Positions 602 to 50,446 of a stretch of 50,593 nt of DNA are shown here, piece by piece. Numbering within the stretch: position 1 is the first letter of the stretch; the number at the start of each line of letters is the position of its first letter. The stretch is from Microcoleaceae cyanobacterium. Its GTDB lineage: Bacteria; Cyanobacteriota; Cyanobacteriia; Cyanobacteriales; Microcoleaceae. The translations under genes were made by a program, and so were the position numbers. The notes below the pieces were generated by a model that was not told where the DNA came from, did not search any database, and saw only the letters and a program-made list of their open reading frames with translations. Where the stretch lies: contig JBOFUV010000050.1 in the NCBI GenBank assembly GCA_051652765.1, positions 1 to 50,593 of the forward strand, read 5' to 3'.

Positions 602-646
602 TTTTTTACCGATCCTCTAGAATTACTAAAGCAGAGATTAACCTTA

Positions 647-712
647 TCATTTCTGACGGTTGGGTTTACAGATGAAACAGTGATTGATGGAGTTGGAGAT
701 GACATCTTTATT
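647..712 (+). pseudogene. Possible orphan fragment of a secreted/surface-protein domain
   Basis: Reads SFLTVGFTDETVIDGVGDDIFI within an open frame that ends at TAA 790, with no ATG start seen upstream. Protein-like and reminiscent of cyanobacterial surface/RTX-associated domains, from recall only. Confidence 0.3.
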
Positions 713-774
713 AATCTGGGTTCCTTAGCTCAGGAGCAGTACTATCGGCCTGATTTTTTAGCCAGCGCGCCTAG

Positions 775-782
775 GCGATCGC
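775..782. repeat. HIP1 octamer GCGATCGC (representative copy; many copies across the window)
   Basis: Copies at 177, 303, 775, 7710 and many later positions. None seen between 783 and 7709. Confidence 0.9.
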
Positions 783-846
783 TGAATTAAACCCTGGAAA
801 AGTAGCCGTTCAAGGTTGAGCGAAATGCGGATGCAGGTACGGAGTG

Positions 847-1177
847 AGATCAAGGCGGGTTTGGTAAAAGATCAACGCGGGTTTGGTATTAAGATCAAGG
901 CGGGTTTGGTGTGAGATCAACGCGGGTTTAGAGAAAGATCAACGCGGGTTTGGTGTGAGATCAATGCGGGTTTGGTATGAGATCAACGCGGGTTTAGAGA
1001 AAGATCAAGGCGGGTTTGGTATGAGATCAACGCGGGTTTAGTGTGAGATCAACGCGGGTGCGAAGCATGATCAACTTAATCTTAGTGTGAGATCAACGGG
1101 CAAGCACTCTGTGATCAAGTTGATCTGAGTGTGAGATCACTGCGGGTTCGATGAACGATCAATCTGAACTTAAGCGT
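847..1177 (+). repeat. 22-bp tandem repeat array, 15 units, consensus AGATCAACGCGGGTTTGGTRTG
   Basis: Units start at 847, 869, 892, 914, 936, 958, 980, 1002, 1024, 1046, 1068, 1090, 1112, 1134 and 1156 (one 23-bp step, the rest 22). Units 1-9 are well conserved; units 10-15 are degenerate but keep GATCA in phase. Confidence 0.95.
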
Positions 1178-1240
1178 AACCCACCACGGATTTATTCAAT
1201 CATCAAGCTAGAAATAATCTCTTCTATTATTCTTCAGAAG

Positions 1241-1387
1241 ATATCTTGAAACTTTCAGGATAATCCTCGAATTAGGTTGTATATCCAGAAAGTTGCAGTA
1301 TAATCGCACTATCAGGGTAGATTATATGGAAAGTTTCAGGGTAATCATCCCAAATTCGATGGTTATGTGGAGAGTTTCTACATAATA
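1241..1387 (+). repeat. Four ~25-bp imperfectly palindromic boxes at 40-41-bp spacing, candidate integrase/regulator binding sites
   Basis: ATATCTTGAAACTTTCAGGATAATC (1241), ATATCCAGAAAGTTGCAGTATAATC (1281), TTATATGGAAAGTTTCAGGGTAATC (1322), TTATGTGGAGAGTTTCTACATAATA (1363). Confidence 0.7.
1277..1304 (+). promoter_or_regulatory. Candidate sigma70 promoter (Pc-like) reading into the cassette array
   Basis: TTGTAT (1277-1282), 16-nt spacer, perfect TATAAT (1299-1304), about 90 bp upstream of the putative attI crossover. Confidence 0.4.
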
Positions 1388-1398
1388 ACTAGTTACAT
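1380..1398 (+). other. Putative attI-like recombination simple site
   Basis: ACATAAT-AACTA-GTTACAT has the L/5-bp spacer/R(GTT) geometry of attI. The sequence starting at this GTT is homologous to the sequence following the attC R' GTT at 50324 (minus strand), which marks it as a cassette junction. Confidence 0.6.
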
Positions 1399-1605
1399 TG
1401 CCAGCGCACCACAGTTTCCCTGTGAAGTTGAACCGAAGGGCGACTGACTATGTTGAGAGAGGGTTTGCATCATCTGCGCTGGTCGTTCTGCTGAGTTAAG
1501 AGACGGTCAGCTCGCCCAAGCCAAGCTAACAAATCACTGCACCCGACCTGCAATAGTATTATTGGATTAATTTCAAAGGTTATCTGCGGCAGGTGAGTTC
1601 AACCA
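1393..1605 (+). mobile_element. ORF-less (empty) gene cassette 1
   Basis: Lies between the GTT at 1392 and attC1. Ends ...CAAGCTAAC, roughly complementary to its start GTTACATTG. Only a 14-codon ATG ORF (1450-1494) was noticed. Confidence 0.6.
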
Positions 1606-1611
1606 TTGGGC
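1524..1611 (+). other. attC site 1 (88 bp)
   Basis: R'' AGCTAAC; L'' ACT-G-CACCCG pairs with L' CAGGTG-AGT with an extrahelical G; R' ATTGGGC (GTT changed to ATT). Central TCAAAGGTTATCTGC motif shared with the other attC sites. Confidence 0.75.
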
Positions 1612-4600
1612 TGCTAAGCGTACACCTCGGTCAACTTGAGTTTGGTTATTTGCTGACAGAGATAAGCAGTAAATTTTAAGGGAATTCGGTAGCGTATAGA
1701 TACAAGCAAAATTTCATGGCGGCGTTTTAATAAACTTGTCACCTCTGTTTAAAGAAAAATTTGCTGCTTTGCTAGATGCCGGAATACAGTAGATCTAGAA
1801 ACGCCAATTAAATAGCCCTTAGCCTATGTCTAAAGCTGAACTTATTGGAAAATCGCACAATGCCCATTTAGGTTGGTTGTTGAATACCTGGATGAGTAGA
1901 AGCAGTTCTCCCGTTTGTTTTCTAGAGGGTTTTCCTGGAACAGGCAAAACTACTATTGCTAGAGAGATGCTCACGCGAATGCACGCTTCAAAGGGAACTG
2001 CCATTATGATTACTGCACCGGAAACGGAGGCAGATCCTACCGATAATCTATTACTCGACTTGGCAATGGAATTAAATAGTGCAGGACGAGATGAACTCGC
2101 AAAAGCGATAGAGAACAATCGCCCATTGTTAGATGTCCTAAGTACTATAGTTAATGACCCTATTCTCATCATTATTGACGAATTTCAGCGTTCGATGCAA
2201 GGTACAAGAGCAATCACTTTGGGTGGCTTTGCCAAGGTGTTAAGTACTCTAGCAAATCGAAAATGGCTGAAAGGACGTATTCTGCTGCTTACCAATCGTC
2301 TTGTAGAACGAGCTAGGTGGTCTGAAGCATATGCCATACGAACATTAAACGGAATGTCTCCGGATGATGGTGTGGAATTACTAGAGCATCTTGCACAAGA
2401 GGATCAGCGATTAGATGAAATTGCTCCAGAACGTCGTCATGATGTCGTTAAATGGCTAGGTGGAAATCCCAGGGCAATCAAATTGCTTGTAAGAAGTTTA
2501 GCTTATGACTCTCTTGATGATTTGATCGGCATACAACCTGAGTTATGGGAGATGAATGATCAAGAGGTTTCTGCTGATCTGGTTGAGGATTTAGAACGAC
2601 AAATACTTGAGAAAACGCTAAATCAGCTTTCTGATTTAACTCTTCTTTGCTTGTATAGTCTTGCAGTACATCGTAAACCCTTTAAGCGACAAGCAATAGA
2701 GTACTTATTTAGTGACAAAGCAGAATACGCTCAATTTAAACGAGATTGCATAGACCGTTTTTTGATGGAACAACACAATAGTTGGTTTACCCTACATCCA
2801 ATTGCCCGTGAGATTGGCTTACAGAAACTAGGGCAATTGCCTAATGGTCTTCAGCAAGCTCATAATGCTGCATCACGGTATTACACACGACACTTTGAAG
2901 CACAGCAGATTGTTGGCTGGGGAGCTTTAGGAGGTTACTTTGTTGAATCGCGCTACCATTTGGTCAAAGCAGGACGACCAGATGATCTCAAGAATATTGC
3001 TCCTCGTTTTCAAAGCCATGTTTTTTCTACGCTTAGTGGGTCTTCTCCTATACCTCATGATCGTGAAGAACGAGATGAGCGCATCGCAGTACTTTCAGCT
3101 TTATTAGAAACACCTGGTCCTAAAAGCTTAGAGTACCATCTTGCTCGTTTATTTCAAGCACGAAACCAACGTAATGACCTTGGGCGTGCCCTGCACCACG
3201 CTCATCGAGCAAAATCTGAAAAAAGTAGTGTTGCTTGGCTGTTATGCAGTGAATTATTGATTCAAATGGAACGGTATGAAGAAAGCATTAATATACTAAA
3301 ACAAGGTATTGATCGAGTTTCTCCCGAAAGTAATCTTGCAGACTTATTCACCAGATGTAGTAAGCTGCTAGCTCAAAATAAAAGGTACGATGAAGCAATT
3401 AGTTTACTTTTGACAGGCATTGATCGCATTCCTCCTGATAAGAGTCTTGCCTCTTTATACATCACTTGTGGTGGTTTGCTGTCCGAAATGAAACGACACA
3501 GCGAAGCAATTACTCTATTACAGCAAGGGATAGATCAGATACCCATAGATAAAAGTCTTGCTGATTTATTTAACAGATGTAGTGGATTGCTAGTTGAGAT
3601 GGAACAATATGACAAAGCAATTGCTGTACTGAAACGTGGAATCAAGCAAATTCCTACTGACAAAAGTCTCGTTATTTTGTATCATAGCTATGGCGAACTT
3701 TTAGCCAAACTGGGAAAATACGATGAAGCAATTAAAGTACTAGAACAGGGTATTAAGCGTATCCCAGTTGATAAAAGTCTTACTACTTTATATTACAGTT
3801 GTGGAAACTTACTAGCACAGACAGGAAAAACAACTAAAGCAATCGTTGTGCTGAAGCAAGGTATTAATCATATTCATATTGACAAGTGTTTATTTCCTCT
3901 ATACTCCCGTTGCGGAGAGTTGATGTTTCAGGTTGGTCATCGGGATGATGCAATCTCCTTGCTTAGAGAGGGAATTGATCGTATCCCACCGGAGCAAGGT
4001 GCTTCAATAATTTATCATACCTGTGCGAAACTGCTGATTCTTTCAAACAAAGCAATTGAAGCTATTGAGATCTTGTCAAAAGGTATTACTGAAATACCTG
4101 TGCAGTATAACCCATATTCATTAGTCGAGTTTATTCTTCTACTTTATGCAGCACTCCGTGATGAACATGAGTTAAATCGCTTTCTTCAAACAATTAAAGG
4201 AATACAGCCACAACACGCTGCTCTTGCAAAAACTCTTTTACAGCAATTGCAAAGCCGATACGAAAGTGCAGCAGAATACGCGAAGAACCTGCGTAAAAGT
4301 GGTACGCGATATCCTTTGCTATCTACCATTGAAGCCTTTTCATGGTTGTGCTGCGGTCAGCCAGAGCGGGCATTAGATGCTATTTTTGTGAATTTAAAAG
4401 AAGGGAAGTATTTTGATCAATGGTTACATGCTTTCATTCAGCTACGGCTAGGCAATTTTGATGAAGCAAAGCAGGCACTTACAACCTATGAAGCTCCAAT
4501 AAGTCTACTGCAAGATGAGGTTGACGAAACAACTTTACTGAGTTTGTGGGATCAACCCTCAGAGAATTTGGAAAACTATGATCTTGCTTACTATTTTCCA

Positions 4601-5911
4601 ACTTTGCCAACTGCACTTACAGGCTTACCGTATCCTGTAACAAGGATTGTTTACCATTCTTCAGTACTGCCTGCCCACATCAAATCAAAAAGTTCTGCTT
4701 TGAGTCGTCCAACTCAAAAGCATGAAAGTAAAACAAGAAATATTAAAGTAGAGGCAATAGATATGCAAGAGAATTACGTTGATTTTGACCTGCACATTGC
4801 AGCCGACGGTCATGCTACTGCTAAGTCTCCAGAAGGAGAGGCTACTGCTGATATTTCGACTCAACAACCTAGTAGCATTCGATTATCTTTGGAACTAATT
4901 GAACGGCGAAAGACAGATGCTGATTTACTGAAGGAGGTGGGGCGATCTCTGTATGACTGGCTTTTCCCAAATTCCATTCATACCCATCTTCAACAGACTG
5001 AAGCTGTGGCTAGACAGAATAAAGCGAAGTTACGCTTACGGTTGAGAGTTGAATCTCCAACAATTGCTAGTTTACCTCTAGAATTTATCTATCGTGCTAT
5101 GGGTGGCTACTTTTTGGCTGCCAATCCTGATACGGTTTTTTCCCGCTATCTGAATTTACCTCTTCCGCAAGAGCGTGTACGTCGTCGTGATACTCCTTTG
5201 CATGTGCTAGCAATTGTGGCTGATCCAACCGACCAAGTACGTCTCGATCCAGACGAGTGGGAAACAATTCTAAAAGAGGCTTTGGATGCACAGTTAACCG
5301 ATGGCAATATGACATTACAGATAGTCAAGAGGGCTACCTACCAAGAAATTCGCAACGCTCTATTGGCGCAAAAGCCTGACGTTATTCAGTTTGTTGGACA
5401 CGGCATCTATAAAGATGGTAAGGGTCATTTAGCACTGGTGGATGAGGATACCAATCAAACTTGGTCAGTAGATGGCGAGCGGTTTGCAAACATTTTTATG
5501 GGCTACAACGACCATCTAGGTCTGATCAGCATGGCAACTTGTGAGAGTGCCCAAAGCGATAACCCACAGGGTTTTTTAGGTATCGCACCACAATTGGTTC
5601 AGCGGGGAACACCCGCTGTGGTGGCAATGCAGTACAGTGTATACATTAAAACAGCTAAAGTTTTTCTAGAGGATTTCTATACTTGTGTAGCATCCCACAA
5701 ACCTATAGATTGGGCTGTGCAATCAGCAAGGAACGCCATATCGTTAAAATTTGGACTTGGTGATCGTGAGTTTGCAACACCTGTTCTTTACATGCGCGCA
5801 AAAGATGGCAACATATTCTGATAACCCGCAGCCCAACAACCCGGTTGGAGCGGACTGGCAAGGCTGGTCGGTTGTGTCTCAAAGGTTGTCGGCAGCCGCT
5901 CAACCGGAACG
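1606..5911 (+). mobile_element. Large integron-type gene cassette 2 (~4.3 kb) carrying the STAND-TPR-CHAT gene
   Basis: Cassette start TTGGGCTGC (1606-1614) is the exact reverse complement of GCAGCCCAA (5828-5836) at attC2 R''. The single gene stops 10 bp before R''. Confidence 0.8.
1826..5821 (+). CDS. STAND (NB-ARC-like) NTPase + 37-aa TPR-like repeats + C-terminal CHAT caspase-like protease
   Basis: Walker A GFPGTGKT (aa 35-42), Walker B LIIIDE, sensor ILLLTNR, GGNPRAI (GxP), LHP (MHD-like); repeats such as YDEAISLLLTGIDRIPPDKSLASLY at a 111-nt period; CHAT dyad FVGHG (H1192) and ATCES (C1239), plus VVAMQ and ATPVLY. Confidence 0.88.
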   Translation: MSKAELIGKSHNAHLGWLLNTWMSRSSSPVCFLEGFPGTGKTTIAREMLTRMHASKGTAIMITAPETEADPTDNLLLDLAMELNSAGRDELAKAIENNRPLLDVLSTIVNDPILIIIDEFQRSMQGTRAITLGGFAKVLSTLANRKWLKGRILLLTNRLVERARWSEAYAIRTLNGMSPDDGVELLEHLAQEDQRLDEIAPERRHDVVKWLGGNPRAIKLLVRSLAYDSLDDLIGIQPELWEMNDQEVSADLVEDLERQILEKTLNQLSDLTLLCLYSLAVHRKPFKRQAIEYLFSDKAEYAQFKRDCIDRFLMEQHNSWFTLHPIAREIGLQKLGQLPNGLQQAHNAASRYYTRHFEAQQIVGWGALGGYFVESRYHLVKAGRPDDLKNIAPRFQSHVFSTLSGSSPIPHDREERDERIAVLSALLETPGPKSLEYHLARLFQARNQRNDLGRALHHAHRAKSEKSSVAWLLCSELLIQMERYEESINILKQGIDRVSPESNLADLFTRCSKLLAQNKRYDEAISLLLTGIDRIPPDKSLASLYITCGGLLSEMKRHSEAITLLQQGIDQIPIDKSLADLFNRCSGLLVEMEQYDKAIAVLKRGIKQIPTDKSLVILYHSYGELLAKLGKYDEAIKVLEQGIKRIPVDKSLTTLYYSCGNLLAQTGKTTKAIVVLKQGINHIHIDKCLFPLYSRCGELMFQVGHRDDAISLLREGIDRIPPEQGASIIYHTCAKLLILSNKAIEAIEILSKGITEIPVQYNPYSLVEFILLLYAALRDEHELNRFLQTIKGIQPQHAALAKTLLQQLQSRYESAAEYAKNLRKSGTRYPLLSTIEAFSWLCCGQPERALDAIFVNLKEGKYFDQWLHAFIQLRLGNFDEAKQALTTYEAPISLLQDEVDETTLLSLWDQPSENLENYDLAYYFPTLPTALTGLPYPVTRIVYHSSVLPAHIKSKSSALSRPTQKHESKTRNIKVEAIDMQENYVDFDLHIAADGHATAKSPEGEATADISTQQPSSIRLSLELIERRKTDADLLKEVGRSLYDWLFPNSIHTHLQQTEAVARQNKAKLRLRLRVESPTIASLPLEFIYRAMGGYFLAANPDTVFSRYLNLPLPQERVRRRDTPLHVLAIVADPTDQVRLDPDEWETILKEALDAQLTDGNMTLQIVKRATYQEIRNALLAQKPDVIQFVGHGIYKDGKGHLALVDEDTNQTWSVDGERFANIFMGYNDHLGLISMATCESAQSDNPQGFLGIAPQLVQRGTPAVVAMQYSVYIKTAKVFLEDFYTCVASHKPIDWAVQSARNAISLKFGLGDREFATPVLYMRAKDGNIF

Positions 5912-5917
5912 TTGTCT
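5831..5917 (+). other. attC site 2 (87 bp)
   Basis: R'' GCCCAAC; L'' CCGGTTG-G-AGCGG pairs perfectly with L' CCGCTCAACCGG apart from the extrahelical G; R' GTTGTCT; central TCAAAGGTTGTCGGC. Confidence 0.88.
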
Positions 5918-5965
5918 GTTAAGCTACTTGTGTACTTCATTTTTTCAGTCTTGCTTCTCTCTCTA

Positions 5966-5987
5966 AGATACCAAATGGGTTCTATAG
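5966..5987 (+). mobile_element. Isolated IS5-family right end
   Basis: AGATACCAAATGGGTTCTATAG matches 21/22 the sequence right after the IS5 transposase stop (50247-50268). Confidence 0.7.
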
Positions 5988-6243
5988 AAGCTTAGACCAC
6001 AAACCATACAAAAATTGCTCACCTGCTAGGAAGTCAATTGACAGAAAATTGACCAGAATTTGTATCCTAGAAATCGAGATTGCAAATGCGAGAAACAACG
6101 CGGGAAACAAAGATAGTTTCTCAACGGACATCTCCTTTGAAAGATCTGCTGCAAATGGCAGGAATTGACCCACAGCGAGTAAGTTAGAGAGTTGTCCTGA
6201 ACAAAATTGTGGCAGACTACTAGAATTACTCCTTAAATGAACA

Positions 6244-50025: not shown

Positions 50026-50264
50026 TTTGTACTCTCACCCAAGCCATCAAAAGCTCAAAAAGAGAAGCAGGGGAAACAGGGTTTTGTCCCGGTTCAAACC
50101 CGATGGGTTGTAGAGAGAACTAATGCTTGGATGGAAAGATGCAAAAGTCTAGTCAAGAACTTTGAGAGAACCCCCGACCATGCCACAGCCAAGGTTAATC
50201 TTTGCTTTGTCCAGTTGATGCTCAAAAGACTTGCTACGGCTTAAATAGATACTAAATGGGTTCT
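50026..50264 (+). mobile_element. IS5-family remnant: transposase C-terminal 72 codons plus right end
   Basis: Hand translation FVLSPKPSKAQKEKQGKQGFVPVQTRWVVERTNAWMERCKSLVKNFERT...LMLKRLATA* (stop 50244), with the IS5 RWxxER motif, then AGATACTAAATGGGTTCT. The 5' part is missing. Confidence 0.85.
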
Positions 50265-50324
50265 ATAGTCAGTAACTCTTCGGTTCAACTCAACAGGAAA
50301 ACTGTGGTGCGCTGGCAAGATAAC
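50264..50324 (-). mobile_element. 5' part of an ORF-less cassette homologous to cassette 1, cut by IS5
   Basis: 52/61 identical to 1392-1452 by hand alignment, starting at the attC3 R' GTT. Confidence 0.85.
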
Positions 50325-50403
50325 GGTGAAGTTGAGCCGCCGCAGACAAGCTTTGACTCCCACAGCTAACCTCTCGGCGGTCGGCTCCAACGATTGGTTC
50401 GAC
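50318..50403 (-). other. attC site 3 (86 bp)
   Basis: Minus strand: R'' GTCGAAC; L'' GTTG-G-AGCCG-A-CCGC pairs with L' GCGG-CGGCT-CAAC (extrahelical G and A); R' GTTATCT; central TCAAAGCTTGTCTGC. Confidence 0.85.
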
Positions 50404-50446
50404 CGTGCCAAACGCTTCCTCTACATTCAGAAACTTGCTCATTTGC

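Follow-up and report, generated by a model that had tools for sequence, protein, structure and literature searches.

The locus considered here raises a simple question: how does an integron lacking an integrase gene come to hold cassettes, one of them of more than 4 kb? It lies on contig JBOFUV010000050.1 (C50) of the Microcoleaceae cyanobacterium assembly GCA_051652765.1 (5.04 Mb in 158 contigs, 46% G+C), the whole 50,593-nucleotide stretch of which is termed the window below. A preliminary description had presented positions 847 to 5,987 as a lone sedentary integron platform, with a repeat array where the integron integrase gene (intI) normally sits. The integrase-less integron stands, but it is one of 22 related attI-bearing heads dispersed over the assembly, and it has insertion sequence (IS) remnants of IS5 type on both sides. 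On balance, we favor the view that it is an integrase-less head with two real cassettes, belonging to a family of heads that were multiplied on a dispersed repeat and loaded in trans.

The recombination sites themselves, both attC and attI, are genuine. An attC profile whose training set was picked by pattern and excluded the window's contig recovers attC1 (plus strand, 1524..1611, 88 bp, E 2e-12), attC2 (plus strand, 5831..5917, 87 bp, E 1e-13) and a third attC on the minus strand at 50319-50399 (E 2e-11), thereby scoring at all three positions anticipated from the letters (1524, 5831 and 50318); the last, which had been counted with the block, is part of another locus, one lying on the opposite strand. 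Across the assembly, the same profile gives 93 matches at E up to 1, with 86 below 0.01. The sites combine R''/L''/L'/R' boxes, paired arms and two extrahelical bases, the features that define an attC. The arms pair at 8/9 positions in attC1 and 9/9 in attC2. Among 44 parsable full-length attCs, whose kinship was not controlled, six of the nine arm positions pair above all 1000 shuffles, the remaining three being near-invariant. Of the two hairpins of 87-88 bp that had been proposed, both hold as to length and profile score; on the bottom strand, attC2 folds at -16.5 kcal/mol (z -1.56) and attC1 is a poor hairpin (minimum free energy -5.7 kcal/mol, z +0.56). Further, attC1 has at its crossover an A (1605) rather than the G of its sister copies, a change that likely locks the array, while attC2 crosses over at G5911|T5912. 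The complementary cassette ends had been overstated to a degree: eight of nine positions match in cassette 2 (owing to the A at 1605) and seven of nine in cassette 1.

Upstream of the cassettes, four palindromic boxes (1240..1386, unoriented; at 1248/1288/1329/1370) with 40-41 bp spacing reproduce the row of 41-bp-spaced boxes seen earlier. They are homologous to a row between the intI start and attI in G002 (L017), one of two genomes of the same genus used for comparison (the other being G001), and are likely to be accessory sites to which the integrase would bind. They run into the attI simple site (plus strand, 1380..1398; crossover G1392|T1393), whose L-5 bp-R geometry we presume to be that of attI1. 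Its assignment gains from the comparison of the heads, since their mutual similarity stops exactly at the attI GTT (G|TT). The first 300 bp beyond differ among heads, with only two matching pairs, which is the cassette variation characteristic of a complete integron. Because the first cassettes differ in this way, loading appears to have followed dispersal, separately at each attI.

The family of heads, tallied from BLAST and motif matches with the partial heads devoid of attI (C61, C88) excluded, bears on how this locus arose. In twelve heads, the array, a linker and a 63-nt intI stub are joined at the same base, with 81-95% identity over 135 bp and no indels. Two of these 12 stubs have stops and one lacks the ATG. 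As the stub lies between array and boxes, the earlier suggestion that the array occupies the usual place of intI is borne out. The window copy retains the linker (plus strand, 1157..1230) and lacks even the stub, a deletion having taken both it and the first box. Array units lie within 1 kb upstream of 14 of the 22 heads, against a chance expectation of 0.002 per array.

The integrase is missing well beyond the window. There is no intact intI in the window, and the TIGR02249 profile, at its own cut-off, finds none in the assembly; the intact divergent intI of a complete integron is absent here. With the IntI of G002 as a tblastn query, the longest piece in the assembly covers residues 1-117, and weak C-terminal matches at C148 and C94 mark the places of other tyrosine recombinases. 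A collapsed intact intI is not suggested by the assembly, where no contig ends within intI coding sequence; an unassembled copy is possible.

The array itself (plus strand, 847..1161), consisting of 22-bp tandem units that become palindromic toward the right end, is longer than first described: Tandem Repeats Finder delimits 9.8 copies at 844-1059, and a GATCA core keeps the 22-bp register over 15 units (848-1161). It is a dispersed repeat that also occurs without an integron, as in one unlinked array in G002; in the assembly, 16 of 30 array clusters are unlinked to a counted attI, some of these being single units and some lying at contig ends or partial heads. A coding role was rejected, as units of 22 and 23 bp disrupt the frame, and so was a CRISPR, for want of spacers; an interpretation as plasmid iterons, or as an array for binding, found no support. 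The Rfam models gave five matches over 600-1900, every one far under its gathering score, and the exact array pattern had no match in the searched genome contigs.

Briefly, we advance the following sequence of events. The common junction shows that a founder head was broken at nucleotide 63 of intI and became joined to the array-linker repeat. Copies were then probably pasted elsewhere via recombination anchored in the repeat; cyanobacteria can be polyploid and take up DNA. A sub-family to which the window copy belongs would subsequently have gained an IS5 end, with probably two or more moves as an IS5-ended unit. The filling of each attI, independently of the others, was probably the work of an IntI since lost, left out of the assembly or only transiently present. 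The window copy then lost its stub and left terminal repeat and underwent the G-to-A change at the attC1 crossover, likely locking the array. Finally, the gene-less cassette may help express the next gene, a STAND-TPR-CHAT protein that could sense a phage protein, oligomerise, activate its protease and stop infection.

Several observations weigh against this scenario. The left ends of the heads in this genome are ragged, implying no transposon-like end for most copies, and the comparisons revealed neither an empty site nor a target duplication. About ten heads of G002 have no array, next to its one unlinked array, which means that heads can disperse without an array. An intact transposase of the IS5-type element was not found in the assembly, whose fragmentation into 158 contigs is itself a handicap. 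The candidate promoter that had been placed at attI is unsupported, the scan giving no consensus sites as against 1.9 in shuffles, and PADLOC returned no system-level match for the STAND protein. Moreover, the heads show a mosaic structure, in which incompatibility affects 214 of 406 site pairs (near-site p 0.044), and the stubs retain a trace of coding constraint, with a ratio of nonsynonymous to synonymous polymorphism (pN/pS) of 0.38 in frame from the small count of 21 variants. These last two features would equally fit conversion of pre-existing, already decayed integrons.

Such conversion is the main rival, albeit one that we regard as unlikely. It would have complete integrons come first, be loaded in cis and decay in place, with conversion then pasting array, linker and stub over the intI remnants and leaving the number of heads unchanged. 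The mosaic signal is in its favor, as is the occurrence of the same junction in two head types, both of which exist in G002, and the 86-97% identity of the stubs to the G002 intI. Genomes with several integrases are also at hand: three separate places in G200 have a near-full intI, and IntI N-terminal matches occur in 171 of 301 genomes of the class, often several per genome and most in the window genome (17; next 13, 12, 9 and 9), a ranking biased by a query from the window genome's own genus. In a search of relatives, four of 41 genomes had an intI match above the cut-off, the G002 copy having a stop at codon 290. However, conversion would require that 13-14 replacements took place on one side only, every one through a separate illegitimate joint on the left, and identical deletions at five scattered loci of G302, together with the three dissimilar flanks that adjoin the IS terminal repeat in our assembly, are more simply seen as duplication.

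To elaborate on the G302 case, five multi-copy genomes, including G302 and G200, were chosen for inspection of intI. G302, a single-contig genome from another family, has five scattered copies of one internal intI deletion (residues 1-41 joined to 242-321). In these five and in one near-full intI, the left end is precise and common to all, about 500 bp past intI; the flanks are unrelated and the first cassettes differ. The shared segment is a 530-bp repeat with 11 near-full copies, six beside intI and five alone; unrelated to the 22-bp array, it contains hairpins and an open reading frame (ORF) of 66 aa, whose stop codon forms the left end (L210 3930-4470). The ORF matches no Pfam or NCBIfam family, falls in unnamed cyanobacterial clusters in Atlas and has no clear homologue in the window genome, while Rfam gives one chance match on the repeat, which is possibly a small mobile element itself. 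The eight loci of G200 have no common end, so the repeat-linked pattern is not universal. As a separate observation, a stretch of about 50 kb on one chromosome (L019 and G016:C1 4450106-4498212) contains three near-full intI besides several fragments.

A less probable alternative, to which we give little credence, is that IntI itself moves heads: recombination of an attC with an upstream secondary GWT site, in intI or the array, would yield an attI-bearing circle that re-inserts elsewhere. Insertion at GWT sites (attG) and excision outside the insertion point have been demonstrated in 10.1101/2022.09.11.507474. G002:C63 (L074, ~1940-2017) offers a clean case in which an attC runs at G|TT directly into intI and an attI head is left downstream of a cassette, and some left joints of heads fall on GTT or GAT. 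In the window, attC2 is fused exactly at its crossover to an IS end. IntI could have made this joint, or a deletion within an overlap of four bases could have done so; on the IS side the base is T, not G, and a 4-base overlap with common cassette starts explains the joint equally well. Further, no array starts directly at an attC or attI crossover, and just one inspected left joint in G002 has the attC-into-intI form. The joining of an attC at its crossover to non-cassette DNA does resemble the attG insertions and single attC sites lacking integron-integrases (SALINs) of Loot et al. (10.1101/2022.09.11.507474), but the route described there scatters cassettes, not attI heads, and the window target lacks the G of GWT.

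Composite transposition by IS5 as the main driver is very unlikely, for although IS ends flank the window element on both sides, the left terminal repeat has distinct flanks in C45, C67 and C101, and IS copies lie within gene-less cassettes at C68 and window position 50267, the IS end is present in only four copies, contig ends truncate C45 and C67 on the right and no intact transposase was found.

The IS remnants nevertheless redefine the element, which begins at 628 and not at 847 as had been described. Its first 18 bp (minus strand, 628..645) are the inner remnant of one IS5-type end, all that the window copy retains after loss of the outer ~60 bp and terminal repeat, as judged from sister copies C45, C67 and C101, which start at the full terminal repeat. 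The label IS5 follows a PF13340 match to the longest remnant (C35). A left extension common to five sister heads follows (plus strand, 646..846; BLAST to C101, C45, C97, C67, C22, C121 and C30). The segment 628-846 is shared by BLAST with C45, C67 and C101 and partly with C97 and C22, and the extension starts with a decayed fragment of a host secreted-protein gene, intact in G002 (L054). A HIP1 octamer lies in it at 775. None occurs in 847-5987, as had been noted, which is only mildly unusual given P ~0.04 at the genome average of 0.64 HIP1 per kb. HIP1 also points to a cyanobacterial host, as does a genome of the same class whose repeat protein clusters with Cyanobacteriota.

The IS5 scar proposed at the right end is real, being the other end of the element with the transposase start and a terminal repeat at 5971-5987 (minus strand, 5912..5987), but it is not confined to that side. 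The configuration recalls the class 1 integrons bordered by MITEs (miniature inverted-repeat transposable elements) or integron mobilization units (IMUs) in PMC3575428, which are likewise defective integrons between non-autonomous IS-like ends, movable in trans. As against those, the window has two different ends of one IS, of which the right terminal repeat is intact and the left lost; it is chromosomal, no target duplication is seen beyond TA, and an IS end is absent from the majority of its sister heads.

Returning to the favored scenario of repeat-borne heads loaded in trans, the locus has a bearing on integron classification. With at least two attC and no intI nearby, it corresponds to the attC-site clusters without an integron-integrase (CALINs) of Cury et al. 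2016 (PMC4889954), even though its attCs, 4306 bp apart, slightly exceed IntegronFinder's 4-kb clustering distance. It differs from CALINs as portrayed in that paper in keeping attI and the box row, in there being 22 heads per genome and in 12 of them sharing one intI break. As origins, the same source lists the loss of intI, rearrangement and use in trans; it reports 95% of CALINs as having no intI pseudogene nearby. More broadly, one might tentatively envisage a distributed cyanobacterial integron, whose attI pads multiply on a repeat behind intI, outlive intI and are filled in trans with large defense cassettes, including NLRs with the effector behind the sensor. Integrons are commonly drawn with a single intI, attI and array. 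Should heads multiply and the integrase act in trans, a genome would gain a whole set of first positions that are expressed, rather than a single queue, and numerous CALINs would be functional landing pads misclassified by attC-based searches. This would offer a testable origin for CALINs, a matter left open in PMC4889954. In the literature covered, which mostly excluded subscription journals and supplements, we found no published account of multiplied integrase-less attI heads in cyanobacteria.

Cassette 2 (plus strand, 1606..5911, 4306 bp) has a single gene and is the longest among 48 attC-to-attC intervals below 8 kb, a natural 4.3-kb single-gene cassette that runs counter to the trend toward small cassettes described in 10.1101/2024.07.02.601686. 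Its ORF (plus strand, 1826..5821, 1331 aa), correctly perceived earlier as a giant NLR-protease, encodes a STAND NTPase, TPRs and a CHAT protease, as assigned by Pfam, motifs and a structure model. The Walker A/B motifs are intact, and the model of residues 1-525 (pLDDT 81) has as top matches the STAND-TPR protein 6mfv and Apaf-1, with MalT and plant NLRs also found; motifs and model together give the domain order typical of STAND proteins, a P-loop NTPase and then helical, winged-helix and repeat domains. A sequence search of solved structures matched mainly TPR proteins. The CHAT domain (PF12770, E 2e-24) has the His-Cys pair of a caspase-fold protease, with His1192 and Cys1239 intact and invariant in 13 of 13 aligned homologues; its single-sequence model is of low confidence (pLDDT 37).

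Among the 120 homologues listed of 149 found, 70 share the STAND-TPR core, which Pfam pairs with CHAT, TIR, phosphoesterase, nucleosidase or glycosyltransferase domains. Proteins P0022-P0044 combine the core with TIR, phosphoesterase, nucleosidase, glycosyltransferase or EAD, the TIR being C-terminal in alignment A2. The core begins at residue 1 in 42 of the 70, including the window protein, and 28 distant ones are extended N-terminally. By analogy with Avs and other defense STAND-TPR receptors, which as presented in PMC13581612 similarly join a STAND NTPase and TPR sensor to exchangeable effector domains, the protein is likely an anti-phage sensor-protease. It differs from Avs in having no N-terminal effector, its own lying C-terminal to the TPRs, and in the absence of a PADLOC match. 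The family with its swapped C-terminal effectors is a candidate for phage defense.

The gene is patchily distributed, none of 300 other genomes of the class yielding a match with this query. In L082, a complete Almyronema integron, the gene is again a cassette whose ends are complementary, as it is in L083, where it lies at an attI with no IntI match upstream. The cyanobacterial attC profile detects attCs in two of 27 NLR/CHAT loci; cassette-like ends at L084, L086 and L160-L162 were seen by eye only. A 96% identical gene in run X1 is followed by DNA unlike that of the window beyond 5826, so not every copy has this attC, and contigs of X1 and X2 span the STAND gene and not 501-1750. A first metagenome scan gave no match, and the search of sequencing runs listed no RNA run and none that contained half of the words.

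Cassette 1 (plus strand, 1393..1605, 213 bp) is, as initially described, empty of a gene. It has 19 further BLAST matches in the genome, seven of them full length. An 85% identical full-length copy occupies the first attI position in G071, a genome from another family, and among 200 other genomes two matched, one over just 23 bp. Its body is no more structured than shuffles (z +0.42, -0.14). The account of gene-less promoter cassettes in Vibrio superintegrons (10.1101/2023.11.21.568050) offers a parallel, as there too a repeated geneless attC cassette lies upstream of a gene cassette, and by this analogy cassette 1 may aid expression of the gene that follows; the likeness is one of description only, with no consensus promoter sites here. 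Since a leader like its 5' part precedes an ORF at G000:C34 (110406-110600), a cassette with a gene may have been the ancestor of the empty one. Elsewhere, at G000:C136 (1147-1370), cassette 1 runs on into the beginning of another copy, and the separate minus-strand locus at 50180-50405 reads as an attC, the first part of cassette 1 and then an IS end, with the insertion base identical to that in C68.

The host genes bordering the element, oppC and mrp, are not adjacent in G001 or G002, where each has other neighbors, and oppC appears to be without its first residues relative to those genomes. An exact 11-bp direct repeat is found at 617-627, abutting the left boundary of the element, and at 6220-6230, just before mrp; it has only seven copies in the genome.

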